Shown here: piece after piece, positions 26,585 through 64,000 of the stretch
Layout: each line of letters begins with the position of its first letter
Numbering within the stretch: position 1 is the first letter of the stretch
Origin: an uncultured Gemmatimonadales bacterium
GTDB lineage: Bacteria; Gemmatimonadota; Gemmatimonadetes; Longimicrobiales; Gaopeijiaceae
Reading direction: 5' to 3'
NCBI GenBank assembly: GCA_963809895.1
Contig: CAWELD010000003.1
Location: 768,001-832,000 of the forward strand
DNA length: 64,000 bases
Position numbers and translations under genes: made by a program
Notes under the pieces: generated by a model
Databases searched by the model: none
What the model saw: the letters and a program-made list of their open reading frames with translations, nothing else
What the model was told of the DNA's origin: nothing

Positions 26585-27613
26585 ATGCGACGACCGACGC
26601 TCCTGCTTCGATCCTCCCTGGTGCTCGCCCTCCTGCTCGTGCTACCGGCCGCGGCCGCCCCGCAGCAAGCGGACGCGGGTGCGACGGTGCGCGCGGTGCT
26701 CTTCTATTCGCCCCTGTGCCCGCACTGCCACGATGTGATGACCAACGACATCCCGCCCCTGCTGGCGCGGTACGGAGATCGTCTCGAGATCGTGGAGGTG
26801 GACGTCACCCGAGTGGACGGCGCCGAGGCGTATCGCGCGGCCATGCAGGTCCTGCGGATCCCCGCCGACCGGGAAGGCGTGCCGACCCTGGTCATCGGCG
26901 ACACCTATCTGGTCGGCGCGGACGAGATTCCGGCCCGGTTGCCGGGCCTGATCGAGGCGGGGCTGGCCGGTGGAGGCGTGCCGCTCCCGGACATCCCCGG
27001 CATCGCAGAGGCGGCCCGTCCGTTCGCGGTGCCGCTGGGGGGCGTCGGAGACATCCCGACGGGGGACGCCGTGCTGGGCTATGCGACGCTGATCCTGGTG
27101 CTCGGCGGGCTGGTCTACGGGATCCGCACGCTGCTGCGGTCCGGCGCCCCGCGAGGCACGCCGTCAGTGGCGATTCCGGTGCTGGCGTTGGTGGGATTGG
27201 TCATCGCGGGCTACCTGAGCTGGGTGAAGCTGGGCGACACGGCGGCGGTCTGCGGGCCCTTCGGCGATTGCGGCCGCGTCCAGTCCAGCCCGTACTCGGA
27301 GGTCCTGGGGGTGCCGGTGGCGTTCCTGGGCGTGCTGCACTATCTGGCCGTGGGCTTCCTGGCCACGGCGTTGCGCAAGGACGGACGGCCTCCGCGCTGG
27401 TACCGGGAAGCCCTCGTCGGTCTGGCGCTGCTCGGGGCGTTCTTCTCGTTCTACCTCACCGGTCTCGAGCTCTTCACCATCTTCGCCGTGTGCACCTGGT
27501 GCCTGGGTTCGGCCCTGGTGGCCACGGCCATCCTGGTGCTGGTGGCGCGGCCCGGCGAAGCCACGGAGCCGCGCACACGGGCGGAGCGGCGCAGGGCGGC
27601 GCGTAAGGGATAG
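26585..27613 (+). CDS. thioredoxin-like domain fused to vitamin K epoxide reductase (VKOR) family domain
   Basis: Signal peptide; FYSPLCPHC...GVPT thioredoxin fold; VKOR motifs VCGPFGDCGRVQSSPYS, GVPVA.LG, VCTWC. Confidence 0.88.
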   Translation: MRRPTLLLRSSLVLALLLVLPAAAAPQQADAGATVRAVLFYSPLCPHCHDVMTNDIPPLLARYGDRLEIVEVDVTRVDGAEAYRAAMQVLRIPADREGVPTLVIGDTYLVGADEIPARLPGLIEAGLAGGGVPLPDIPGIAEAARPFAVPLGGVGDIPTGDAVLGYATLILVLGGLVYGIRTLLRSGAPRGTPSVAIPVLALVGLVIAGYLSWVKLGDTAAVCGPFGDCGRVQSSPYSEVLGVPVAFLGVLHYLAVGFLATALRKDGRPPRWYREALVGLALLGAFFSFYLTGLELFTIFAVCTWCLGSALVATAILVLVARPGEATEPRTRAERRRAARKG

Positions 27614-47735: not shown

Positions 47736-47808
<73 letters not shown>

Positions 47809-47858
47809 CTCGCAAGGGGGAGCGAAGCGGTCGCCCGCGGAGCTCCCCTTCGCGCATC

Positions 47859-47929
47859 GGCGCCGTAGCCAAGCGGTAAGGCAGAGGACTGCAAATCCTT
47901 TATCCCCGGTTCGAATCCGGGCGGCGCCT
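47859..47929 (+). tRNA. tRNA-Cys(GCA)
   Basis: GGCGCCG/CGGCGCC acceptor stem, GAGGA-CTGCAAA-TCCTT anticodon arm, GTTCGAATC; CCA not encoded. Confidence 0.97.
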
Positions 47930-48120
47930 CTTGGGGCTTCGGGGTTTCCGCGTGTGATGCGCGGAGGCCCCGTTTCGCATTGGGGCATGGGCTCCGGCGG
48001 CGGCCCTCGCGGGTGGCCACCCACCAACGCGGCCCTCGCCGGCGGCCTCGCTCCATGCGGCTCCAGGTCGGCGCACACAAGGCGGGCCACTCGGACCGGC
48101 GCACCGCCGGCGGCCTCGCG

Positions 48121-48289
48121 GTCAATCGCGCAACGGCCTGCTTCCCGGCGATGGATGCGGGATTGGCGGTAATAGATCCGGTCCGGCGCTCGAGCGTTGG
48201 ATCTTGCTTCGCCGCACGCAGGGTTCGCGGCGATTATTGACGCCGCCGGCGCACCGATCGCTGCCCGGACGACGGTCTGCGCGGGTCGT
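48121..48289. repeat. 169-bp tripartite element, copy A (right end degenerate)
   Basis: GTCAATCGCGCAACGGCC...GATGGATGCGGGATT...GCAGGGTTCGCGGCGAT; homologous to 54294 and 55992. Confidence 0.75.
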
Positions 48290-48367
48290 TGGCGTTTGCG
48301 CGTGAGCTGCGCAGCGTGTATGGTGGTGTTTGCTAGTCTCCCCGTCACCCTCTCACGGAGGTGGAAC

Positions 48368-48862
48368 ATGCGGCACCGTATTCTGTTCCCACTCATGGCT
48401 GGTCTCTTCTTGGCGTCAGCACCTGCGCTCCAAGCGCAAGGGTCATGCGGAACCTGCTGGGATGCCACAGACCACTTGGGGAATTGGATGCATGCGTTCT
48501 CCTCGGGGCCCCCAACCCCGCCGCCGAATTATGACCTCGACGACCACATGAGCTATTTCTTCGAGGCAAACGATCCCGAGGACCCTTCTGACCAGGGTCA
48601 TACCTACTGGCTTGGCGGCAAGTGCGTGAGTGCGCATGCCCTCTGTCAGCCGGGAGAGTTCGCTCAACGGTTGGCGAGTAGCACGACAGAGGCAATCGCG
48701 GGGTGGTTGGTGGAGGACGCCAATGTGAGAATCGACCCAGAGAGACCCATCGTTTGGGCGCACTGCAGTGGCCACTTGATCCACCGCGACCTTCCATTCG
48801 CGGTATGGGTCGCTGCGCGGACGGCGCAGGTTGCGGCTGACCTAGGGCTGTCTGCACAATAG
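48368..48862 (+). CDS. secreted Cys/His-rich hypothetical protein
   Basis: GGAGG SD; signal peptide MRHRILFPLMAGLFLASAPALQA-Q; CGTC, MHAF, GH..W.GGKC...H..C, HCSGH. Confidence 0.7.
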   Translation: MRHRILFPLMAGLFLASAPALQAQGSCGTCWDATDHLGNWMHAFSSGPPTPPPNYDLDDHMSYFFEANDPEDPSDQGHTYWLGGKCVSAHALCQPGEFAQRLASSTTEAIAGWLVEDANVRIDPERPIVWAHCSGHLIHRDLPFAVWVAARTAQVAADLGLSAQ

Positions 48863-48981
48863 CGCCCCACTGGGTAGGAACCACTGGCCAACGGAAGAGT
48901 TCGCCCGTGGCCCGGTTGGTTTGACTGGGCCGCGGGCAGCTTCGGCTGATCCACTGAGAGAGATGGGAGGGATAGAAACGG

Positions 48982-51900
48982 ATGCATGTCCGCCGGTACC
49001 TCGGACTCTTCTCGATTCTCGGCATCGCGGCCCTCGGCCTCCTTCCAATCGCCGCCCGCGCCCAATCCCGCACGAGCTCCGCAATCCGGGGCACGGTGGT
49101 CCAGGAAGACGGCACGCCGGTGTCGGGCGCCGAGGTCGTAGTGCGGCACCAGGCCACCGGCGCGGAACGGGCGACGCTCACCAACGCCAACGGGGCCTTC
49201 CTGGTGCTGCTACTCCAGCCCGGCGGGCCGTACTCCGTCACGGTTTCGAATCTGGGCTTCGCCGACTTCCAGCGTGACGACCTGACGCTGCCGGTGGGCG
49301 AGACCACGGTCGTGGACGTGGTGCTGCGCACCGAGGCACTGGAGCTGGAGGGATTGGATGTCGAGGTCGAGCGCCGGGCGCGGGTGTTCGATCGAGACCT
49401 GGTGGGTCCCACCACCCGGCTCAGCGAGCGCGCGGTGGAATCGACCCCGCTCATGTCCCGCGACGTCATGCAGCTCTCGCTCCTGTCGCCCCTTGTGAAG
49501 CGCACCGAGAGCGGGGGATTCTCCATCGCCGGCCAGAACGACCGCTACAACGCCATCCTCATCGACGGGGTGCTGAACAAGGACCTGTTCGGGCTCACCT
49601 CCGGCGGTGTGCCCGGCGGGCAGGCGGGCGCCAAGCTGATCCCGCTGGACGCCATCAGCCAGTACGAGGTGCTGGTGGCGCCCTTCGACGTGCGCCTGTC
49701 GGGCTTCACCGGCGGGGTCATGAACGCCGTCACACGGTCCGGGACCAACGACTGGCGGGTGCGTGCGTCGGCAGTGCACCGGGCCGAGGCGCTCATGGGC
49801 GACCTCCAGCTCGTGACGGGTCCCGTGGATGCCTCGGGCGTGGACCGCTCGCTCCTGGCGCTGTCCGTGGGCGGGCCCATCGTCCGGGACCGGGCCCACG
49901 TCTTCGTGGCCGGGGAGTTCGAAGACCGCAATCACGTGCCGGTGGGCTACAACCTGTTCCGGGACGACGGCAGCCTGATCCGCATCTCCACGGACAAGAT
50001 CACCGAGCTGCAGGACGACTTCGAGAGCACCTACGGCCTGGCCACCGGCAAGGCAGAGGCGTATCCCCTGGGGCAGCGGCTCTCCAACGTGTTCGCGCGC
50101 GTGGACTGGAACATCGCCCGCGGACACCGGCTCACGGCCCGCAACGTGTTCGCGCGGGCCGAGAACGACGAGACGCCCAACCGGACGGGCTTCGATCCCT
50201 ACGAGCTGTCGTCCAACGCCGTGTTCCGGACCTCGACCTCGAACACGACCTCGGTGCAGCTCTTCAGCGACCTCGCAGGGCTGGGCTCCAACGAGCTCGA
50301 GCTCAGCGTGGCCCGGAGCACCGACGAGACGCGCCCGGCGTCCGACTGGCCCCAGGTGGAAGTGGAGCTCATCAGTAGCATCGACGGCTCCTCGTATCAG
50401 CGCTCGACACGGCTGGGCGGCAACTTCTTCGGCCAGGAGAACCATCTCGCGCAGACGGCCTATCGGCTGACCAACTCGCTGGACATCCCCCGGGGCGACG
50501 ACGGCGTGCTCACGGTGGGCGTGACCGGCTCGTACATCGACATCCAGCACTCCTATCTGCCCGGCGCCCGCGGCGAGTACTTCTTCCCGAGCCTGCAGGC
50601 GCTGGAAGAGGACACCCCGTCCCGATACCAGCGCGCCGTGCTGGCGGAGGGCGAGAGTCCGGAGGTGAGTCTCCAGGCCGCGGAGTGGGGATTCTTCGCC
50701 CAGAACCAGATGCGGCCCGGCAAGGGGCTCAGCCTGCGCCTGGGGATCCGCGTGGACGTGCCCTACCTGCTCTCCAATCCCCCGGAGAACCTGGACGTGC
50801 TGGACTACTTCGGCTATTCGACGGCCGACGTGCCCAGCGGCAACTTCATGATCTCGCCGCGCTGGGGCATCAACTGGCAGAGCAGCGGGGAGCACCGCAC
50901 GCAGGTCCGGGCCGGCGGTGGCATGTTCACCGGCCAGATCCCGTACGTGTGGGTGGCCGATGCTTTCCACAACGACGGTCTCCGCTCCTACACCCAGGTG
51001 TGCCGTGGCGACGACACGCCGGGATTCTCGACTTCAGCGGTGCCCCAGGGCTGCGAGACGCACCACAACGTGGTGGTGTTCGAGGACGGCTTCCGGTTTC
51101 CGCAGGACCTGAAATTCTCGGTGGGGGTGGATCACGAGTTCGCCGACTGGATCAGCGGCTCGCTGGGCGCGCTCTTCAGCAAGGCGCTCAACCAGGTGGC
51201 CATCCACGAGCTCAACTACGAGCAGGGCGGGAACCCGGCCCCGGGCTACACGGACTTGGGGAATCGACGCTTCTACGGCAATCGGGGCGCGCCCTTCGAT
51301 CATGTGCTCCTGGTGACCAACGAAGGCGAGGACTGGGGCGCTTCGATCACCGCCGAAGTCCGGGGCACGCTGGCCCGGCGGCTCCAGTTCCAACTCGCCT
51401 ACGCGCTGGCGCGCTCCTGGGACCGCACCAGCCTCGTCTTCGCCGACATGCTGTCCAACATCGGTCTGAACCCGGTGACAGAGAATCTCAACAAACCCCC
51501 ACTGACGACATCCAACTTCGATCGGCCCCACAAGATCGTGGCGAGCGTGTCGGGGCCACCGATCCCAGGTCTCCCGGACACCCAGGTCTCCCTGCTCTAC
51601 ACCGGGCAGTCGGGCCTTCCCTTCACCTACGTCTACGACTTCGATCTGAACGGGGACAGCCTGCCGGGACCCGGTGGCGCGCTCGACCGTTACAATGACC
51701 CCGTCTGGGTGCCCGCCCAGGCGGAGGACCTGCCTGGCACGATCGCCACCCAGATCCTAACGGCCCGGGCCTTGACGAACGACGCGTGCTTGCGAGAGAA
51801 CCGGGGGCAGATCCTGGGGCGCAACGCCTGCCGCGCGCCGTGGGAGAATCGGCTGGATCTGCGCGTCACCCAGACACTCCGGCTGGGCGCGGCCGACGTC

Positions 51901-52158
51901 CGATTCGAGGGCGACCTGGTGAACGTGCTCAACCTGCTCAACGGAAGCTGGGGTACGATCCAGCAGGTTCGCCCTCAGGTGCCGCTCTACGAGCTGTGCA
52001 ACTGCGGTGCGCTGCTACGGTGGGGAGGCGGTGTCCTGCCTCGGAGAGACAAACAGGACCGGGTCGAACCTTCGAACCCTTGGGCGCCGGTCTCCCCCGA
52101 CTCACAGTGGCAGATCCAGCTCGGGGCACGGGTGACTTTCGATCGCGGGAGGCGCTGA
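48982..52158 (+). CDS. TonB-dependent receptor, Oar type with N-terminal carboxypeptidase regulatory-like domain
   Basis: Signal peptide; IRGTV..EDG.PV.GA.V, TNANG.F, PGGPY.V; plug SIAGQNDRYN.I.IDG, FTGGVMNAVTRSGTN; ISPRWG.NW; C-terminal strand WQIQLGARVTF. Confidence 0.92.
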   Translation: MHVRRYLGLFSILGIAALGLLPIAARAQSRTSSAIRGTVVQEDGTPVSGAEVVVRHQATGAERATLTNANGAFLVLLLQPGGPYSVTVSNLGFADFQRDDLTLPVGETTVVDVVLRTEALELEGLDVEVERRARVFDRDLVGPTTRLSERAVESTPLMSRDVMQLSLLSPLVKRTESGGFSIAGQNDRYNAILIDGVLNKDLFGLTSGGVPGGQAGAKLIPLDAISQYEVLVAPFDVRLSGFTGGVMNAVTRSGTNDWRVRASAVHRAEALMGDLQLVTGPVDASGVDRSLLALSVGGPIVRDRAHVFVAGEFEDRNHVPVGYNLFRDDGSLIRISTDKITELQDDFESTYGLATGKAEAYPLGQRLSNVFARVDWNIARGHRLTARNVFARAENDETPNRTGFDPYELSSNAVFRTSTSNTTSVQLFSDLAGLGSNELELSVARSTDETRPASDWPQVEVELISSIDGSSYQRSTRLGGNFFGQENHLAQTAYRLTNSLDIPRGDDGVLTVGVTGSYIDIQHSYLPGARGEYFFPSLQALEEDTPSRYQRAVLAEGESPEVSLQAAEWGFFAQNQMRPGKGLSLRLGIRVDVPYLLSNPPENLDVLDYFGYSTADVPSGNFMISPRWGINWQSSGEHRTQVRAGGGMFTGQIPYVWVADAFHNDGLRSYTQVCRGDDTPGFSTSAVPQGCETHHNVVVFEDGFRFPQDLKFSVGVDHEFADWISGSLGALFSKALNQVAIHELNYEQGGNPAPGYTDLGNRRFYGNRGAPFDHVLLVTNEGEDWGASITAEVRGTLARRLQFQLAYALARSWDRTSLVFADMLSNIGLNPVTENLNKPPLTTSNFDRPHKIVASVSGPPIPGLPDTQVSLLYTGQSGLPFTYVYDFDLNGDSLPGPGGALDRYNDPVWVPAQAEDLPGTIATQILTARALTNDACLRENRGQILGRNACRAPWENRLDLRVTQTLRLGAADVRFEGDLVNVLNLLNGSWGTIQQVRPQVPLYELCNCGALLRWGGGVLPRRDKQDRVEPSNPWAPVSPDSQWQIQLGARVTFDRGRR

Positions 52159-52159
52159 C

Positions 52160-52810
52160 ATGCGTAAGCGACAATGGAGGGTTGCGTGCGCCGCGATCTT
52201 TCTCACCACAACGGTCGGCGCCTGGCTGACCGCCTGCCAGGACGGCACCGGCCCAAGCTACGTGAGAAATATCCAACTGATACCGGATTCGGCCTACGTG
52301 CCCGTGGGCGAGAGCTACGATTTCCGTCTGGTTGTCTTCGATCAACGCGGCGACTCCATGCCGGACCGGGTGTCCCGCGTCGACCTCCGCAATCGCAATC
52401 CTGAATTGGTGACGGCCGAGCTGGACGGTGCACGCCTGCACGTGACCACGCTCCAGACCGGGAGCGCCGTCCTTGAAATGAACCTGGGATTCGGCTCTGG
52501 CCTAGCCAAGGTCCTCGTCACTCCGGAGCACGTGGATCACATCGAGATCGATCCGACGCCGATCATTATGGAGAATGGCGGCCAGTTCCATGTTCAAGCT
52601 CGGCTGTTCGACGAGGCCGGCAACGAGTTGTCCCCGGAGGGCCACCACATCTCGTGGAAGAGCCTCGACTCTGGGAACGGGATCTTCGTGACCGATCTGG
52701 GCTTCCTTTGCACCGTCACGGCATCATTCTACGAGCGCCTTCCCCATTACGACGAACTCACGCTCATCGTCGACAATCTGAGCGTATCAACCCAGATCAC
52801 CGTCCAGTAA
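52160..52810 (+). CDS. lipoprotein with tandem Ig-like domains
   Basis: Lipobox LTAC; I.PDSAYV.VGES, IEIDP, A.LFDEAGN.L, ISWKS, as in Big_2-like repeats. Confidence 0.7.
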   Translation: MRKRQWRVACAAIFLTTTVGAWLTACQDGTGPSYVRNIQLIPDSAYVPVGESYDFRLVVFDQRGDSMPDRVSRVDLRNRNPELVTAELDGARLHVTTLQTGSAVLEMNLGFGSGLAKVLVTPEHVDHIEIDPTPIIMENGGQFHVQARLFDEAGNELSPEGHHISWKSLDSGNGIFVTDLGFLCTVTASFYERLPHYDELTLIVDNLSVSTQITVQ

Positions 52811-52812
52811 GA

Positions 52813-53925
52813 ATGGGAGGCGCATGCCGACGAGTCGGCATCCTGATCTGCATGCTGGCGGCTTGCAGAGGTGATCCAGCCCCACGGCGGACCTCAGGTA
52901 GCGAAGGCGGTGAGAAGACTCGCGAGGGGACGTCTCAGAGAGAAGTCACACTAGACATCGCCCTTGAGGAGCCGAGGCTGGTCGTGGGGGACTCCGCAAG
53001 GCCCTTGTATTCGGTAACCTACGCGAAGATTTCCCAGGTTGGGAACCTCTTGGTGGCGAACGGCCGTCACGAGATTATCCAGTTTGACGCTGCTGGCTCA
53101 TGGATGGCGACCTTCGGACGTTCCGGAGACGGTCCCGGCGAATTCCAGGCCCTCTGGGACATTTTTCCACGTGATGACGGCAGTATCCTGGCATATGACC
53201 CCTCGGCGTCGCGGATTACCCGATTTCAGCCCGACGCCGATCCTGAGATCGCGCTTCTTCCCGTTTCGTTCGCTCTACCCAGTGGACCTTCGGTGCTTGA
53301 CTCCGACGAAATCGTCGGGATACTAGCCGAGCTTACCCAGTCCACCCTTCCCCCCGGAGCACAAGCACGGGGCTCAGCTCATCTGGTTTGGTCGGACGCC
53401 AACTGGCGAGCCTTCGATACGGTGATGACTTTGCCAGGTCGCATGTATACATCGAATTCGCGCGGCTTGACGGTCTCTGCCCGGAGCCCCGACGTGTTAT
53501 CAGTCGCTTCCGCAAACCGCGTCTATGTGGCCTCCACCGACGTCCCCGATATCCAGGTCTTGGACTCCGCCCGCCATCCGAGCCTAGTTCTAGTGCTCCA
53601 TCTTCCGACCGCCGAGGTCGAGGCCCGTCGTGAAGCCGATGGAGGCATCCAAGGTTCACTCTTCGACAAGCTCGCAGTGACCAGAGGGAATACGCTTTGG
53701 GTCCGACTTCCTGGCCCCCAGGATGCGGCCGTGTGGGAATGGCAGTTGTTTGATGCAAGTGGAAACGCGGAGGCTCGCGTGCGGACTCCCCGACAGTTGA
53801 GGATCACCCAGGTTTCGGAAGATCGTGTCCTTGGCGTGTGGACTGACGACCTGGGCGTGCAAACGGTTCGTTCGTTCCGGCTGGGGAAGAGGGTAACGGA
53901 CTCCATCCCTCAGATGGGCGGTTAG
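52813..53925 (+). CDS. 6-bladed beta-propeller lipoprotein
   Basis: Lipobox LAAC; FDAAG.W..TFGRSGDGPGEF, YD....RITRF, G.LWV, W.LFDASG, GVWTDDLGV..V. Confidence 0.78.
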   Translation: MGGACRRVGILICMLAACRGDPAPRRTSGSEGGEKTREGTSQREVTLDIALEEPRLVVGDSARPLYSVTYAKISQVGNLLVANGRHEIIQFDAAGSWMATFGRSGDGPGEFQALWDIFPRDDGSILAYDPSASRITRFQPDADPEIALLPVSFALPSGPSVLDSDEIVGILAELTQSTLPPGAQARGSAHLVWSDANWRAFDTVMTLPGRMYTSNSRGLTVSARSPDVLSVASANRVYVASTDVPDIQVLDSARHPSLVLVLHLPTAEVEARREADGGIQGSLFDKLAVTRGNTLWVRLPGPQDAAVWEWQLFDASGNAEARVRTPRQLRITQVSEDRVLGVWTDDLGVQTVRSFRLGKRVTDSIPQMGG

Positions 53926-54149
53926 GCCCCGTATCAGGAGAACCCGAACCGCTCCGACCCCTTAGCTCCTCGCTCTGCAGGTGGGGACCGACGTGGGCCT
54001 CAAGGCTCTGTCGCCCGCAGACTGTCCTGGGCTTACGCATGCGGCCTCACGTCACTAGTCAGGAGGTGCCCCTGAGGGCCCGCAGTTCGGCCGGTCTCGG
54101 CTCGTCAACCAACTCGAGCAGGTCATCGGCTTGGACTGGCCGGAGATTC

Positions 54150-54190
54150 CTGCAAATCCTTTATCTCCGGTTCGAATCCGGGCGGCGCCT
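54150..54190 (+). repeat. displaced 3' fragment of tRNA-Cys (att site)
   Basis: 40/41 identical to 47889-47929; no 5' tRNA half upstream. Confidence 0.9.
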
Positions 54191-54293
54191 CTTGGGGCTT
54201 CGGCGTTTTCGCGTCTCCTTCGCGGAAGCCCCGTTTCGCATTGGGGGGTCCGGTGCGCGTCCAAACCGATAGGCGGTGCGCCCGCGGCCCACC

Positions 54294-54462
54294 GTCAATC
54301 GCGCAACGGCCGCCTCTGTGGCGATGGATGCGGGATTCGCCGCAATGGCTCCGGTCGGGTGCACAACGGATGCCGCGTCCGGCGGGGCGTGCAGGGTTCC
54401 CGGAGATCGTTCACGTCACAAACGCAGCGACCGCTGGGGGAGGGCGTGGTTGCGGGATTGAC
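54294..54462. repeat. 169-bp tripartite element, copy B
   Basis: Terminal inverted repeat GTCAATCGCGCAAC/GTTGCGGGATTGAC (13/14); internal 60-61-bp subunits. Confidence 0.8.
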
Positions 54463-54693: not shown

Positions 54694-55125
54694 GTGGATC
54701 AGAGCATCATGTTCTGCCGTGCCAGAGACGACGTGACCCTCGCCTGGGCCCGATCCGGTCGGGGGCCGCCGCTCGTGAAGGCCGCGAACTGGTTGAGCCA
54801 TCTCGAACACGATTGGTCGAGCCCCGTGTGGCGACCCCTGCTGGAGCGCCTGGGGCCAGCAACATACGGTTGTGCGGTACGACGAGCGCGGCTGCGGGCT
54901 GTCGGACCGAGAGGTCGAGGATCTCACCTTCGAGGCATGGGTGCGCGATATGGAGGCGGTCGTGGACGCCGCGGGCCTGGAGCGCTTTCCCTTGCTCGGG
55001 ATTTCCCAGGGAGGCCCCATCGCCATCGCCTACGCCGTCCGCCATCCGGAGCGGGTGAGTCGGCTGATCCTCTACGGCACCTACACCCGGGGACGACTGC
55101 AGCGCGATCCCTCTCGCCAGGCGCA
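54694..55125 (+). pseudogene. truncated alpha/beta hydrolase (N-terminal half only; frameshift near 54865)
   Basis: I.FC.A.D.V.LA.A.SG.GPPLVKAANWLSHLE.DW.SPVW, then RYDERGCGLSD, LLGISQGG, HPERVSRLILYG; similarity stops near 55120. Confidence 0.75.
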
Positions 55126-55215
55126 GCAAGATTGCGCGGAGCGCCGCGGATGCTCGCCGAACCTGAGGCCCTTCACGACCTCCGTTCACAGTCCCTCGTC
55201 GTGCGTCATTTTGCG

Positions 55216-55431
55216 TCATTGGACCCCGCAATCGGTGTTCTTGCAGTGCGTGGAATCGCAGTTCGTGAAGCTGCTGCTGTCGTGCTTGCACTTACCGTCC
55301 ACGCACTTGTCGTGTTCACAATCCAACGCCGCCAGCGGCGTTGGCGCGACGATGGAACCAAACGCGGCACCCGCGCCGGCGGCGGAGCTCATTCCGGCGA
55401 GAGCAAACAGGAAACGGCGGAGCGTCCTCAT
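55216..55431 (-). CDS. secreted six-cysteine miniprotein 1 (71 aa)
   Basis: GAGGGAG SD; signal-like leader MRTLRRFLFALAG...PTPLAA; core LDCEHDKCVDGKCKHDSSSFTNCDSTHCKNTDCGVQ; paralog adjacent. Confidence 0.82.
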   Translation of the reverse strand: MRTLRRFLFALAGMSSAAGAGAAFGSIVAPTPLAALDCEHDKCVDGKCKHDSSSFTNCDSTHCKNTDCGVQ

Positions 55432-55490
55432 GGTGGTTCTCCCTCGGTTGAAGGCGGTTGAAGATCGGGTCGAGACGGCGTCCGCTCTGA

Positions 55491-55718
55491 CTATTGGACC
55501 CCGCAGTCCGTGACGTCGCATCCGACGTTGCCGGGTCGCATGTCGCAGTTCTGTGGCTGCGGGTTGTCGGACTCACACTGACCCAGGAGACAACGGTCGA
55601 ACTCGCATCCCGATGCGGACAGGGCTGCCGGTTGTAGGCTCAGGCCGGCGGTTGCGCCACTGATCACCACGGCACCGAGGAAGGCGATGCGCTTGAAGGC
55701 GCTCTTCGGAAGACTCAT
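55491..55718 (-). CDS. secreted six-cysteine miniprotein 2 (75 aa)
   Basis: AAGGGAG SD; leader MSLPKSAFKRIAFLGAVVISG...PAALSA; core SGCEFDRCLLGQCESDNPQPQNCDMRPGNVGCDVTDCGVQ. Confidence 0.82.
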   Translation of the reverse strand: MSLPKSAFKRIAFLGAVVISGATAGLSLQPAALSASGCEFDRCLLGQCESDNPQPQNCDMRPGNVGCDVTDCGVQ

Positions 55719-55991
55719 TGCTTCAACTCCCTTGAGCTGTGACCGGGCCGGAGGTGACGAGGATCGAACACCTGTCCCGCGCGGCCGTTTCCAAATAAGT
55801 GCGTAAGCGCTATGGGAGGTTGACACCCGGCTCTCTTGCTCGAGGCGTTGCGAGACCCGGTCTGGATCAGCGCGTGGTCCGGCGGACCTGACAGGAAAGA
55901 CGCCGCACGTGTACGGGCGGCCGGCGGCGGCGCCCCATGCCGGGTGCGCCCAAGTTAGATATTCCGGGTCGGCGCCGCCGGCGACCTTGCC

Positions 55992-56160
55992 GTCAATCTC
56001 ACAATCGCCGGCTCGTGGCGGACGCATGCGGGACTCGGGGCGATAGTTGCCCCTAGACGCGCAAGGGCCGCTCCGTCGCGCGGCGCTTGCAGGGTTCCCG
56101 GCGATAGTTCGCGCCGGGAGCGCAACGGTCTGGCGCGCGGGGTCTGCATGCAGGATTGAC
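55992..56160. repeat. 169-bp tripartite element, copy C
   Basis: GTCAATCTCACA...TGCAGGATTGAC; the inverted repeat extends outward to 55976/56174. Confidence 0.78.
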
Positions 56161-56211: not shown

Positions 56212-58981
56212 CTACCCGTCCGCCGCCAGCGCCTCTGCGGGCTCGATCTTCAGCGCCCGCCGGGTGGGGACCACGCAGGCGAGGAGGCACACCAGCGTCA
56301 TGACCAGCGTGTGGGCGAGGAGGAGGGCGCCCCGGGTCGGTGTGGGCTCGAGGGTGCCCTCCGAGGCAGCGAAGACCACGAGGGCGAGAAGCATGGACCC
56401 GACCAGCACGCCCGTCGCCACGAGACGGGCCATACGGCCTGCGACAGCCGTCACTACCTGCCGGCGGTCCGCGCCCAGGGCGACCCGCACGCCGATCTCG
56501 CGGGTCCGGCGGGCGACCGTGTACGAGATGATGCTGAAGATGCCGGCGTTGGTGAGGAGCATGGCCAGGACGCCGGCCACCACCACCACCCGGAACCAGG
56601 CGTCGTAGGCGGCCAGGGTCGCACGATCCGCCTGATCCAGCGAGATGGGATCGTCGACGCGGAGCTCCGGGTCCACGGCGCTGGCCAGCGTCCGCAGACG
56701 ACCCGCGAAGGCCGTGGGATCCCCCGAGAGATGCACGGCCACCTTGAGGGAGTAGGCCTCACGGGGCGACAGGTGGTGGTAGATGCCCGCGTTGTGCGGG
56801 AGGTCGGGGTCGATGGTCATGACCACGTCCCGCACGACGCCGACGATGCGGTACCAGTCGCCGGCCTCTTCGGGATCCGGTCCGGCACCGCTCGCGGCGC
56901 CGGGGCCGGTGTAGCGGAGCCTGGCACCGACGGCGTTTCGCCCTCCCAGGAACTCCCGCACGAACGACTCGTTGACCACGACGACACGCTCGCCGCTTCC
57001 GGCGTCGCCCTCGTCGAAGCCGCGTCCGGCCACCACGTCCATCCCGAGCACGCGAAAGAACCCCGGGGCCACGCTCACGAGCTGCGCCCGGTTGCCCCAC
57101 TCGTCGGGATAGGACGCGTTGGGCGCATCCACCTCCACGGGCCGGCGCTCGTGCCACGCGCCCGGGAGCTGTGTGGCCACAGCCACCCCGAGGACGCCAG
57201 GCTCAGCGGCCAGGCGACGCTCGAGCTCCTGCACGTCGCCTCGAAAGCGCCCACCGAACACCGGGTCGGCAGCGGCCTCCTCCCCCGAGCCGAAGGCCTC
57301 GCCACCGTCCAGGGCGAGCTCCGCCGACAGGAACTCCGTGGCAGCGAACCCGGGGTCCGCCGTGCGGATCTTCCAGGTCTCGGCCCCGAGCCAGAGGACC
57401 ACGGGGACGAACATCACCGTGAGGGCCACCTGGGTGACGATGATGCCGCTCCACAGGCGTCCGAGGCGAGACCCGGAGCCGCGCCCGGCCAACCGTTGCA
57501 GGCTACCCTGGGCGTGGCCGCCTGTGATCTTGAGGCCCGGGAGCACGCCCGCGATCGAGGCGCCGACCAAGGCCAGCAGCACGGCGTATCCCACGGTCGC
57601 CGGATCGAGTCGCTGATGGAACCAGAAGGGGAAGGGCTCGCCCGACGACGAAGCGATCCCGAGCACCCACCCCAGGGCCGCCGAGCCCGCGGGCAGCCCG
57701 ATCACGAGCGCCACGGCGGCCAGGGCGAGAGCTTCCGCGAAGAGCTGCCCGACGATCCGTCCACGGCTCGCACCCAGGGCGCTCCGTACCGCGATCTCGC
57801 CCTCGCGGGCGGCGGCCCGGGCGAAGAGCAGCAACGCCACGTTTGCGCACACCAGCGCCATGAGCGCCATGAGGAAGAGGGCGCCCAGGGCGAGGATCCC
57901 TCCCATGCTCATCACGCCTCCGGTCTGGACCGCGGTGGGCGGGAACCGGTTCACGCGCGCCACCAGCTCGCCGTGGCTCTCGGGCCAGACCTCGGCGAGG
58001 CGCTCGCCCATGGTCGCCACCTCGGCCTGGGCTCGCTCCAGCGTCGCTCCGGGCGCCAGCCGACCCAGCACGGCGAGCGCCGGCCCGCTGCCGGGCTCGT
58101 ACGCCGTCGCATCGAGGTGCAGCGGCGTCCACAGGGTGAAGGAGGCCGGGAACTCGAATCCTCTGGGCATGACGCCCACGATGGTGGTGGCCTCGTCGCC
58201 CAGATGCACGATGCGTCCGACGATGTCGGCGTCTCCGCCGAATCGGCCCTGCCACAGGTCGTAACCGATCACCGCGACCGGGGGCGCGCGGGGCCCATCG
58301 TCGGTTGGAAGGAGCGGGCGCCCCAGCAGGGGAGGGACCTTCACCAGGCCGAAGGCCGACGCAGTAATCGCGACGGCTCGCACCGGGGCGGTGTCGTCCT
58401 GGCCCAGAGACAGATTGCGAGGCCCGGCCGAGAACGCACCCAGGTCGGTCACGGAGCGCAACCTGCTGCGCCATACCTCCAGATCGCGGGCGGTGCGTGC
58501 GTCGGGCAGCGACGTGCGCGTGTTCATGTTGAAGACGCGCACCAGGTTGTCGCCGCCCTCGTACGGAAGCCGCGGATACGCCGCGTCGCGGAAGAACTGA
58601 AAGGCGCCCGCGCCCATGGCGATGCCGAAGGCCATGGCGACGCCGCCGATGACGGTGATGCCGGGATAGCGCGCCAGCATGCGCAGGCCGAGCTTGAAGT
58701 CCAGCCACGAAACGCCCATGGCGAAGCGGCGGCGCGCTGCCCGCGTGGCGGGGGTCCGCGCTCGACCGGCGCGCCGGTCCCGTCTCCGCTCCCTGAGCAG
58801 CGCCACACCCATGTCCAGGGCCTCCAGTGCGCGTCCCGAGCCAGGCCCGGATCCGTCCGTGGCGCTGCAGCCGCCTCCGGTGGGACTCTTCCAGGTCGCC
58901 CAGTACCTCTTCGGAACGGTCCGGTGGGGCCAGGCGGGTGAGAAGCGACCGGGCCCAGCGGGGGATGCTCAGACGGTCCAT
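56212..58981 (-). CDS. ADOP-type duplicated MacB/FtsX ABC permease; one-base frameshift near 58826
   Basis: Prefix domain PRWARSLL...EEVLGDLEE; D.KLGLRML.RYPG, CANVA.LL.AR...REGEIAVRSALGASRGRI, QVAL, V.RRTREIGVRVALGA, PTRRAL.IEP.EAL. Confidence 0.9.
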
Positions 58982-60883: not shown

Positions 60884-61313
60884 CCGCCTCACCGCCTCCA
60901 GCCACCACGAAGATCTTCGCCACGTCGGCGCCGTAGCCCAGCGTGGCGACGATGCGGGTCTTGCCCAGGCCGACGGCCACGATGGTGGCGTCGGGATCCC
61001 GGGCATCGACCCGGGCCACGGAGGGATCCTCGCTGTAGACCTCCACGCGCTCGGCCCGGTCGGGAAAGGAGTCGCCCATCTGCGAGAACACCCGGATGTG
61101 GAGCTTGATGGACTCGCCGGGCGCCAGGTACACGGAGTCGGGCACGACGCGCACGTTGAAGACGAAGGGCGGCGTGAAGGCGTCCTGGGTGCAGGCGGAG
61201 GCGAGCCCCGCCAGGGCGAGCCCGCACAGCGCGAGCCGTCCGAGCCCGCGCAGCCGCCCTCGAAAGACATCCCCCGAACCCACGGACCGGGACCACGCCG
61301 TCCGGCTCTTCAT
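60771..61313 (-). CDS. lipoprotein with a single Ig-like domain, paralog of 52160-52810 (3' end uncertain)
   Basis: ATGA-coupled to the upstream receptor; lipobox ASAC; NVRVVPDSVYLAPGES, VFSQMGDSFPDR, LGYG...AKIFV; its tail overlaps the amidohydrolase 3' end by 113 bp. Confidence 0.65.
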   Translation of the reverse strand: MKSRTAWSRSVGSGDVFRGRLRGLGRLALCGLALAGLASACTQDAFTPPFVFNVRVVPDSVYLAPGESIKLHIRVFSQMGDSFPDRAERVEVYSEDPSVARVDARDPDATIVAVGLGKTRIVATLGYGADVAKIFVVAGGGEAATAPPTPSAADPPPSRPGPWRRTPGAPRRPGAGGRRR

Positions 61314-64000
61314 CGGCTGCCCTCCTGGAACGTGACCCGGGCGCCGAGCTGGATCTGCCACTGGGAGTCCGGGGACCGGGGATTCCAGGGGGGCGAGACT
61401 CCGCCCTCGCCGTTGGGGCGCGAGAGGATGCCTCCGCCCCACTGCAGGAGCTCGCCGCAGTCGCACTCCTCGTACATGGGGATGATGGGCGGCGCGGTCT
61501 CGATGCGGCCCCAGGTCCCGTGCAGGAGGTTGAGGACGTTGATGAGATCCGCCTCGAAACGCAGGTCCGCGGCTCCGAGACGAAGGCGCTGCGCCAGCCG
61601 CAGATCCAGCCGGTTCTCCCAGGGCGTGCGGCAGCCGTTCCGCTCCAGGATCTGTCCGCGGTGGCTGGCGAGACAGGCGTCGCTGCCGAGCGCTGCCTGG
61701 GTGAGGATCTTGGTCGCCAGCGTCGCGGGCAGCTCGTCGCCGGAGCGAGGCACGTAGATGGGATCGTTCCAGCGGTCCTGGGTGCCGCCGAGGCCGGGGA
61801 AGCCGTCGCCGTTGAGGTCGAAGTCGTAGACGTAGGTGAAGGGTGTGCCGGACTGGCCGGTGAAGAGGAGCGAGATCTCGGTATCCTCGAACCCCGGGGG
61901 CGCACCGAAGAGCGCCACCACGAACTTGTGCGGGCGATCGAAAGCCGAGGTCACCAGCAGCGGCTTGTTGATGCTCACGGTGCTCGGATTCAGACCGAAA
62001 TTGGACAGCATGTCACCGAAGATCAGGCTCATGCGGTCCCAGGAGCGCGCCAGGGAGTAGCCGGCCTGCACGCGGAGCCCCTCGGCGATCTGCCCCCGCA
62101 CCTCGGCGGTGATGGAGACGCCCCAGTCCTCGCCGTCGTTCTGCACGACCAGCACGTGATCGAAGGGCGAGATCACGCTGCCGAAGCCAGGGATGTCGTG
62201 CTTGCGCGGCTCGTAGAAGTTGCGTTGGTCACCCAGACGGAGCTCGGCGGGCGTGGGATTGCCGCCGAACTGCGAGCTCGCCAACGCCGGCTTCACCTGG
62301 TGGATCGCCTTGCTGAAGAGGGTTCCCAGAGACGCGCTCCAGTGGTCGGTGAGCTCGCGGTCCACCGCCATGGAGAACTTGATGTCCTGCGGGAACTTGA
62401 AGTCGTCGCGGAAGACCACCACGTCGCCCAGGCCGCCACAACCCCCGGGCGTCGCGCCCGGATCGAAGGCGGGCGTGTCCTCACCCTCGCACGCCACCGT
62501 GCGGGTGCGCACGCCGTCGTTATGGAGCGCGTCGGCGAGCCAGATGTAGGGGAGCTGGCCCGTGAACATCCCGCCCCCGACGCGGAGCTGTGTCCTGTGC
62601 TCACCGCTGCTCTGCCAGTTGAATCCCCACCTGGGCGAGATCAGGAGATTGCCGCTGGGCACGTTCGACGTGTGGTACCCGAAGAAGTCCAGCACGCCGA
62701 CGTTCTCGCCCGCCGTGGCGAGGAAGTGGGGCACGTCCAGGCGGATCCCCAGCATGAGGGAGAGGCCCTCGCGGAGCGTGAGGTGGTTCTGCGCGAACAG
62801 GCCCCACTCCAGCACGTCGAAGTTGACGTCGGGCGGCTCGCCATCGGTGACCACGCCACGCTGGAAGCGCGTGGGCGTGTTGGCCTCCAGATGGGCGAGA
62901 CTCGGGAAGTAGTACTCGCCCGAGGCGCCCGGCAGATAGCCGTGGGAGAGATCGTACCAGGCGGCGGTCGCGCCCACGGTGAGCACCCGCTCGGCGTTCA
63001 CGAAGCTGAGCGCCTCCGACAGGCGGACCGCGGTCTGCGAAAGCGCGTTCTGCTGTCCGAACAGGTTGCCGCCGAGCCGCACCTCACGCTGGTACGGCAC
63101 ACCGTCGATGTCGCTGCGGAGGTCCACCACCAACTGCGGCCAGTCGGCGGCGGCGCGGGTGTCGTCGGTGCTCCTCACTACCGACAGCTCCAGCTCGTTG
63201 GATCCCACGCCCTCGATGTCGCTGAAGAGCTGGAGCGAAGTGGTGTTGGAGGTCGAGGTGTGGAAGAGGGCGTTGGAGGAGAGCTCGTAGGGCCCGAAGC
63301 CGGTCCGGTTGGGCTCCTCGTCGTTGGAGGCCCGCACGAAGACGTTCCGGAGCGTCATCCGCTGTCCCTGGGCCAGGTTCCAGTCCACGCGCGCGAACAC
63401 GTTGGACAGGTGCTGTGCCAGGGAATAGGTGCCGGCGGTGCCGGCGTCCAGGCCGAACTGGGCCTCGACGGCGTCCTGGAGCTCGGTCATGGCTTCGGGG
63501 GAGATGCGCACCAGCGCCGGATCGTCCCGGAAGAGGTTGTAGCCCACGGGGACACGGTGGCGCTCCTCGAACTCGCCGGCCACGAAGAAGTGGGCCCGGT
63601 CGCGCACGATGGGCCCACCCACGGACAGCGCCGCCAACGAACGATCCACCCCCGAGGCGTCGACGGGCCCCGTGGCCAGATTGAGGTCGCCCATGAGGGC
63701 CTCGTTCCTGTGCACGGCCGAGGCGCGCACCCGCCAGTCGTTGGTGCCGGAACGGGTCACCGCGTTCATGACGCCACCGGTGAATCCCGACAGGCGCACG
63801 TCGAAGGGCGCGATCAGGACCTCGTACTGGGAGATCGCATCCAGGGGGATGAGCTTGGCGCCGGACTGTCCCCCGGGCACGCCGCCCGAGGTGAGCCCGA
63901 ACATGTCCTTGTTGAGCACGCCGTCGACCAGGATGGCGTTGTAGCGGTCGTTCTGGCCCGCCACCGAGAAGCCCCCGCTCTCGGTGGGCTTCACGAGAGG
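61310..64000 (-). CDS. TonB-dependent receptor, Oar type, paralog of 48982-52158 (5' end outside the window)
   Basis: TESGGFSVAGQNDRYNAIL.DGVLNKD, AKLIPLDAISQYEV, SPDSQWQIQLGARVTF. Confidence 0.92.
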   Translation of the reverse strand, partial: PLVKPTESGGFSVAGQNDRYNAILVDGVLNKDMFGLTSGGVPGGQSGAKLIPLDAISQYEVLIAPFDVRLSGFTGGVMNAVTRSGTNDWRVRASAVHRNEALMGDLNLATGPVDASGVDRSLAALSVGGPIVRDRAHFFVAGEFEERHRVPVGYNLFRDDPALVRISPEAMTELQDAVEAQFGLDAGTAGTYSLAQHLSNVFARVDWNLAQGQRMTLRNVFVRASNDEEPNRTGFGPYELSSNALFHTSTSNTTSLQLFSDIEGVGSNELELSVVRSTDDTRAAADWPQLVVDLRSDIDGVPYQREVRLGGNLFGQQNALSQTAVRLSEALSFVNAERVLTVGATAAWYDLSHGYLPGASGEYYFPSLAHLEANTPTRFQRGVVTDGEPPDVNFDVLEWGLFAQNHLTLREGLSLMLGIRLDVPHFLATAGENVGVLDFFGYHTSNVPSGNLLISPRWGFNWQSSGEHRTQLRVGGGMFTGQLPYIWLADALHNDGVRTRTVACEGEDTPAFDPGATPGGCGGLGDVVVFRDDFKFPQDIKFSMAVDRELTDHWSASLGTLFSKAIHQVKPALASSQFGGNPTPAELRLGDQRNFYEPRKHDIPGFGSVISPFDHVLVVQNDGEDWGVSITAEVRGQIAEGLRVQAGYSLARSWDRMSLIFGDMLSNFGLNPSTVSINKPLLVTSAFDRPHKFVVALFGAPPGFEDTEISLLFTGQSGTPFTYVYDFDLNGDGFPGLGGTQDRWNDPIYVPRSGDELPATLATKILTQAALGSDACLASHRGQILERNGCRTPWENRLDLRLAQRLRLGAADLRFEADLINVLNLLHGTWGRIETAPPIIPMYEECDCGELLQWGGGILSRPNGEGGVSPPWNPRSPDSQWQIQLGARVTFQEGSR

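Follow-up and report, generated by a model that had tools for sequence, protein, structure and literature searches.

The stretch of DNA analysed here, 64,000 nucleotides (nt) of an uncultured Gemmatimonadales bacterium (hereafter, the window), carries a tandem pair of genes for small proteins with six cysteines each. According to our analysis, the pair belongs to an uncatalogued family of bacterial miniproteins for which export and disulfide stapling are predicted. Both the family and the gene cassette in which its members normally occur (miniprotein, propeller lipoprotein and thioredoxin-like protein) are real and uncatalogued, and the window locus is an orphan example of them. Miniproteins that have three disulfides and a folding catalyst of their own are known mostly from eukaryotes. 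A literature search at the level of listings and abstract openings, most subscription journals aside, returned no description of this system.

The first-pass annotation of this DNA had described two adjacent small open reading frames (ORFs) of 71 and 75 aa with Shine-Dalgarno (SD) sites, and both were recovered where it had placed them, on the minus strand:

55491..55718, minus strand: miniprotein gene 1, 75 aa, with a Sec-like leader of about 35 aa and an acidic six-cysteine core of 40 aa (core at 55494-55613)
55216..55431, minus strand: miniprotein gene 2, 71 aa, with a Sec-like leader of about 35 aa and a six-cysteine core of 36 aa (core at 55219-55326)
55727..55733, minus strand: Shine-Dalgarno-like site of gene 1
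55439..55445, minus strand: Shine-Dalgarno-like site of gene 2

The genes are separated by a 59-nt spacer, and the SD sites, assigned from sequence, are of the GGGAG type, 7-8 nt 5' of the ATG. Both cores agree exactly with the cysteine pattern that the annotation had proposed, and each leader closes with P-x-x-L-x-A; by heuristic assessment, each has an N-region with a net charge of +3, a hydrophobic stretch and a small-x-Ala site. The cores have net charges of -3 and -5, three His residues occur in the gene 2 peptide, and neither peptide contains Trp. The two proteins share 25 identical aligned residues (mutual BLASTP E 1e-12), and 12 of the 24 non-Met residues common to them are encoded by different codons, which fits an old duplication kept at the protein level. 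A scan of the whole genome for six-cysteine frames gave 55 frames, the majority of them Arg-rich shadow frames; three were judged by eye to have a signal-like leader, and two of these are the window pair. Near-identical DNA covering parts of both genes was found in contigs of public runs from two studies, at a depth under 5 and possibly of an origin shared with the assembly; the two differences listed for a near-identical contig are one silent change at a Cys codon and one that alters a leader residue. There was no RNA run among the sequencing runs listed as carrying DNA of the pair.

Searches with single sequences recovered only the query itself (one of six candidates) and the Atlas matches to single sequences were all under 0.8, so that profiles were needed to find the family. 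The first profile, built from the two window sequences and run over 401 genomes of the order, gave matches in 31 genomes at a loose cut-off, with clear homologs in the top loci; the iterated profile matched in 26 of 401 genomes of the phylum, and 57 members were then aligned. The family is present in 51 of 401 Longimicrobiales genomes, with up to 13 matches in one genome, and numbers 512 clusters (50% identity, E<=1e-3) among 1.84 billion representatives. Its distribution is patchy, with 2 of 20 genomes of the window genome's genus carrying it, and its named proteins come from Gemmatimonadetes, Candidatus Palauibacter and, in the Balneolota, Fodinibius roseus. Both window genes score well against the family profile (E 2.4e-14 for gene 1 and 4.4e-14 for gene 2). 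None of the 57 members matched any Pfam family at E<=0.01, nor did the pair; NCBIfam had no family for the pair or the 57 members, save one chance match (1/57), and a PDB sequence search with the peptide gave no match. The earlier proposal of a new family of secreted six-cysteine miniproteins, in which the framework is fixed and the loops vary, is thus borne out by homologs and by the lack of a match to a described family. Some damaged or changed members were also observed, with frameshifts in loci L050 and L115 and a replaced Cys3 in L107.

The six cysteines are invariant across the 57 aligned members, and the spacing C-x4-C-x(3-17)-C-x(mostly 9)-C-x(mostly 6-8)-C-x(mostly 4)-C holds in 149 of the 150 best-listed matches. 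The family signature can be written as C-E-x-D-x-C…C…T-x-C…C-x-T-x-x-C. Among 148 cores, conservation outside the cysteines is seen for Glu at Cys1+1 and Asp at Cys1+3 (86% each) and for Thr at Cys4-2 (72%) and Cys5+2 (77%); Trp is present in 84 of them, with no conserved Trp column, and the net charge is negative in 141, a bias that may in part be a product of the search profile. The TDCGVQ ending, previously taken as the shared motif, proved to be local, since a CGVQ end was found only in the two window proteins among the 150 best-listed matches; in a search with the back-translated motif, all five metagenome matches were chance matches and there were no viral ones. Export of the family via Sec is predicted from the leaders: by heuristic criteria, all 102 leaders considered have a hydrophobic stretch, and 94 each have a positive N-region and a small-x-Ala site. 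Family members have a median of 40 residues ahead of Cys1. Export through the twin-arginine (Tat) route was rejected, the twin-arginine pattern being present in 0 of 150.

The cores likely fold with three disulfides. An AlphaFold2 (AF2) model of the gene 2 core has four short strands forming two hairpins and no helix, with a predicted local distance difference test score (pLDDT) of 87-95; fold searches with the peptide model gave no match, the 31-residue core being too small for these to be informative. In knottins, Cys3 and Cys4 are adjacent or almost so and the disulfides join cysteines I-IV, II-V and III-VI in a knot, and CS-alpha-beta defensins have C-x3-C in a helix, a terminal C-x-C and a cationic character. 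The miniproteins resemble both groups in having a six-cysteine core of 30-40 residues behind a signal peptide. They differ from knottins in the gap between Cys3 and Cys4 (8-10 residues in 137 of 149 members, 9 in both window peptides), and from CS-alpha-beta defensins in the C-x4-C plus C-x4-C spacing, the lack of a helix in the modelled core and the negative charge. The initial knottin or defensin-like reading is therefore not supported, in view of the spacing, the all-strand model and the acidic charge. Secreted peptides with a defensin-like CS-alpha-beta spacing do occur in two genomes of the order (L167:6417-6776 and L168:4076-4288) and form a separate family.

The first-pass annotation had implied a stand-alone peptide, which was misleading because relatives of the pair normally accompany a thioredoxin-fold protein and a propeller lipoprotein, the recurring order being peptide, propeller lipoprotein, thioredoxin-like protein. 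The propeller is six-bladed and matches DUF5128/NHL, its profile matches NHL-repeat structures, and it has a lipobox-like Cys, an invariant His-Pro close to the N-terminus, and invariant His, Asp, Tyr, Trp and two Cys residues. The third protein has no Pfam match; its structure model (pLDDT 90) shows a thioredoxin fold, matching TlpA/CcmG/ResA/DsbE folds (E 4.5e-4; Z 8.8, root-mean-square deviation 2.8, 112 aligned), with the active-site Cys65 just ahead of helix 66-69. The active site is mostly a one-cysteine motif (CxxS in 36 of 40, CxxC in 4 of 40), and 39 of the 40 have T-P where the cis-Pro is expected. The protein has an N-terminal helix and is predicted to be membrane-anchored. A plasmid search with it gave no match, and a related-locus search returned only its own locus.

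The three genes are linked. A thioredoxin gene lies no more than 6 kb from 81 of 99 peptide matches, on the same strand for 80; this count used 98 of 142 thioredoxin rows, leaving out genomes without a peptide match and two split halves. The thioredoxin is present in 84 of 401 genomes, by hand count in 45 of the 51 peptide genomes versus 39 of the 350 others. For the 104 distinct peptide matches in the fetched loci, a propeller accompanied 87, a thioredoxin 83, both 82 and neither 16, and the propeller was the next gene for 44. A reverse test from the thioredoxin side, which is less circular than these counts, took 20 thioredoxin loci from among those lacking a peptide match and detected a small Cys-rich secreted ORF near 13 of them, on the same strand in 12. 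Natural fusions were also observed: in L113 the peptide is fused to the propeller, the peptide part lacking Cys3 and Cys4 and the propeller lacking its own leader, and in eight loci with the same cassettes (L047, L048, L052, L056, L057, L097, L112, L117) the six-cysteine module is fused to a helical domain of ~150 aa with HEAT-like Atlas neighbours (0.91-0.92). A search for longer fused forms scored 0 of 8000 candidates, a weak result because fusions are visible in the loci. Optional genes in 61 cassette loci include a TonB-plug receptor (13 loci, mostly between peptide and propeller), an S26 signal peptidase (7, and two further loci at a looser cut) and an extracytoplasmic function (ECF) sigma factor (12, while the window genome alone has 29 ECF sigma matches). 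A separate observation concerns a second type of small secreted peptide, with several CC pairs, which stands beside another thioredoxin-like protein and a membrane protein (L047:17221-17862, L060:5498-5860, L153:6815-7015).

In a set of 30 non-redundant single-copy loci (36 before near-duplicates were removed), core identity tracked the propeller more than the thioredoxin (partial rho 0.46 vs 0.05), a result no more than suggestive of co-divergence of peptide and propeller. Several points weigh against the functional model set out below. With halves of equal length the effect shrinks (N-half 0.42 vs 0.11; C-half 0.27 vs 0.20), the leader control gave no information, and the distance to the peptide gene is shorter for the propeller gene than for the thioredoxin gene. 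The linkage counts are partly circular because neighbouring genes of these loci supplied the sequences for the profiles, and the related genomes in them are not independent. Among the 16 matches with neither partner are the window pair, fragments, matches at contig ends, and longer or defensin-like peptides that are unrelated; no small Cys ORF was detected at 7 of the 20 thioredoxin loci of the reverse test; and peptide and propeller are not in a one-to-one ratio, with four peptides per propeller in L120 and three in L114. The possible contribution of the profile to the acidity of the cores belongs here as well.

We propose that the miniprotein is exported via Sec, has its disulfides shuffled by the CxxS protein and then docks on its cognate propeller, a sequence of events to which we give an even chance as a whole. 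Export would end with cleavage by signal peptidase I after the Ala-x-Ala site, after which the miniprotein would be oxidised by a generic DsbA or VKOR, and the CxxS protein would proofread it via a mixed disulfide. In docking, the conserved acidic C-E-x-D-x-C patch could serve as a common grip and the variable loops could provide specificity, so that miniprotein and propeller would act as a ligand and partner pair of the cell envelope. Taken separately, the shuffling of miniprotein disulfides by the cassette thioredoxin and the binding of the folded miniprotein by the propeller lipoprotein are both likely. Protein disulfide isomerases of the CXXS type isomerise or hold their clients without oxidising them (PMC12384036). 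The window pair might be folded by generic oxidases and then meet non-cognate propellers of the genome, or might consist of early-stage remnants.

The described systems nearest to the cassette each resemble it in part only. NHLRC2 (animals and some bacteria) and SOQ1 (plant thylakoid lumen) combine a thioredoxin-like domain with a six-bladed NHL propeller (PMC6107167). The same domain types occur together in the cassette, here as adjacent separate genes, and a SOQ1 'quenching protein' chain (7djk) matches the cassette thioredoxin fold (Z 7.8). The differences are a single fused chain with CCINC there versus separate envelope proteins with C-x-W-S here, and the small Cys-rich gene that accompanies the two proteins; for the bacterial NHLRC2 homologs, no conserved neighbours are reported (PMC6107167). 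Bacteroidetocins (class IIf bacteriocins) are also small secreted Cys peptides with a dedicated thiol oxidoreductase gene; their loci have a 15-aa double-glycine leader, an ABC peptidase-transporter and four Cys, and the paper makes no mention of a propeller (PMC6671954). The miniproteins differ in their long Sec-like leader, six Cys, acidic core and propeller lipoprotein. A neighbouring thiol oxidoreductase is found for the family (81/99) and not for the window pair; an ABC transporter with a peptidase domain was absent among 38 scanned neighbours, and no search of the loci was aimed at that family.

The cassette also recalls methylamine dehydrogenase in that a small protein rich in disulfides occurs together with a propeller and a TlpA-like thioredoxin. 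These are encoded there by genes of the mauA/mauB/mauD/mauE set, and MauA carries a tryptophan tryptophylquinone (TTQ) made from two conserved Trp residues. The cassette peptide differs in being much smaller and in having no conserved Trp, and the thioredoxin is mostly monothiol; the maturation proteins MauE and MauG were not among the 38 scanned neighbours, and no genome-wide search was made for them. In Bacteroidota, small secreted ORFs of the NVEALA type (PF14055) lie immediately 5' of genes for DUF5128-type propeller lipoproteins. The miniproteins are distinguished from them by the absence of any Pfam match among the 57 members, a different Cys framework and the CxxS thioredoxin that belongs to the cassette.

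In the window genome, the pair stands without these partners, and the earlier remark that no modifying enzyme is adjacent holds true within the window. A thioredoxin ortholog was not found in this genome (best E 1.4), nor was a full-length cognate propeller among its 82 partial propeller matches, and no remnant of either gene was detected between the pair and a neighbouring hydrolase gene. The flanking features are as follows:

55094..55215, unstranded: junction at the site of the propeller and thioredoxin genes in relatives, a probable deletion or recombination point
54700..55093, plus strand: broken alpha/beta-hydrolase-LuxR gene, with a frameshift near 54850 and homology that stops at about residue 145 of a 369-aa relative
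56212..58812, minus strand: upstream neighbour, an ADOP-like duplicated MacB/FtsX permease (545 bits, cut-off 622)

The broken end of the hydrolase-LuxR gene begins ~120 nt beyond the last stop of the pair, and no run contig bridges the hydrolase junction by 31 letters. Since the partners were not found and the neighbour is truncated and frameshifted, a deletion that took the partners and truncated the hydrolase-LuxR gene has probably orphaned the pair. Deletion is the simplest reading, and an insertion of the pair alone is also possible. The assembly is 95% complete in 11 contigs, so the partners could lie in an assembly gap. The other family-bearing genome of the genus has a full cassette in a different context. 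The window genome has three DsbA-like and two VKOR genes, one of the two VKOR-domain genes being located within the window (~27173-27544). As a putative exporter, the ADOP permease was rejected because the ADOP profile matched no other peptide locus. A propeller encoded within the window (52654-53925) was rejected as the partner, being on the opposite strand, inside a tRNA-bounded island and not of the cognate type.

At the family level, three other readings of the cassette have to be weighed. It is quite unlikely that the system is one of polymorphic toxin and immunity, with the miniprotein as an antibacterial peptide and the propeller as its cognate immunity protein. Patchy distribution within the genus, up to 13 matches per genome and the co-divergence with the propeller would suit such a function, as would the many clustered propeller matches of the window genome, which resemble orphan-immunity arrays; nevertheless, a net negative charge is found in 141 of the 148 cores, close relatives often conserve the core to the same degree as the partners, and the window genome retains both peptide genes intact although no cognate propeller was detected in it. 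A peptide kept without its propeller is the reverse of the usual orphan-immunity pattern. Bacteroidetocin loci do combine a Cys peptide and a thiol oxidoreductase (PMC6671954), whereas the leaders here are long and Sec-like rather than of the 15-aa double-glycine type. The propeller might instead be an enzyme, with the miniprotein either as its small subunit, as in methylamine dehydrogenase (MauB/MauD), giving Glu and Asp to a shared metal site, or as its substrate, in the manner of a ribosomally synthesised and post-translationally modified peptide. The invariant propeller residues, the conserved Glu and Asp near Cys1, the L113 fusion and the several peptides per propeller, which suit a shared enzyme, point in this direction, and the propeller shows weak sequence similarity to the PAL propeller of PAM (3fvz, E 5.5e-5), a similarity confined to generic NHL blades. 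The cores, however, lack a conserved Trp from which a quinone cofactor could be made (84 of the 148 contain a Trp at all, and the window peptides none). Among the 38 neighbour proteins scanned, a part of all neighbours, none matches a known peptide-modifying enzyme, as would accompany enzyme-modified secreted peptides such as the MNIO/bufferin type; we consider this reading unlikely. Very unlikely, finally, is a secreted acidic metal-scavenging peptide that is retrieved via a TonB-dependent receptor and passed to the propeller. The acidic cores, the three His of gene 2 and the receptor gene in 13 of 61 cassette loci are in its favor, but the receptor is missing from 48 of the 61, the 13 positives include close kin, and the window genome has no match to the TonB-plug receptor at E 1e-30; a dedicated disulfide catalyst further implies that the cysteines are not free ligands.

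A different alternative, whose weight is independent of the family-level readings, concerns the window pair alone: it may consist of non-functional remnants that have not yet decayed after the loss of the cassette. This we regard as possible, though doubtful. The partners were not found, the adjoining gene is frameshifted and truncated, broken members exist elsewhere in the family (L050, L115), and the GC content at third codon positions (GC3) is 0.76-0.78 in the pair vs 0.89-0.91 in housekeeping neighbours. However, the ORFs, SD sites, leaders and all 12 Cys are intact although the neighbour has decayed, the listed differences in the near-identical contig (depth under 5) are confined to one silent change at a Cys codon and one leader residue, and generic oxidases that could fold the peptides exist in the genome.

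Some further features of the window and its genome were noted. One contig of run X1 passes over a 176-nt element upstream of the pair (55984-56159), with 21 letters on the shorter side; the element has ~70%-identical relatives at 54292-54415, 48105-48263 and three other places in the genome and is possibly a small mobile or structured repeat. At 47736-54250, tRNA-Gly and tRNA-Cys are followed by a lower-GC island that ends in a partial tRNA-Cys duplicate (~54150-54246) and encodes a TonB-type outer-membrane protein, an Ig-like protein and a weak DUF5128 propeller; a paralogous receptor module lies at 61310-63994 on the minus strand. The 82 DUF5128-like propeller matches of the genome are in many cases clustered (C3 ~3.16-3.36 Mb and elsewhere), and five DUF5128-like propellers are directly preceded by other types of Cys-rich secreted ORF (C10:516528, C10:521146, C10:1009723, C3:661338, C3:1032926).

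Overall, at least 512 divergent bacterial clusters are built on one scaffold, and its hairpin loop, which accepts 3-17 residues, turns it into a display library of natural origin. From the cassette, a ligand can be suggested for the abundant DUF5128-type propellers, which have so far been without a function and of which the window genome alone has 82 matches. It also suggests a tractable client for a thioredoxin-plus-NHL pair, the substrates of the human and plant counterparts being poorly defined, and the incomplete window locus offers a natural setting for testing whether the peptides function in the absence of their partners. More tentatively, and with real reservations on our part, Gemmatimonadota and Balneolota may possess a diversified ligand-receptor code in which cystine-stapled miniproteins are matched with cognate six-bladed propeller lipoproteins under the quality control of a dedicated monothiol thioredoxin. 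If so, the cassette would parallel, in bacteria, the propeller receptors with which animals bind small disulfide-rich ligands. It would also amount to an NHLRC2/SOQ1 divided into separate proteins and supplied with its own client gene, and the window orphans would be partner-less ligands acting on the propellers of neighbours or on non-cognate ones.
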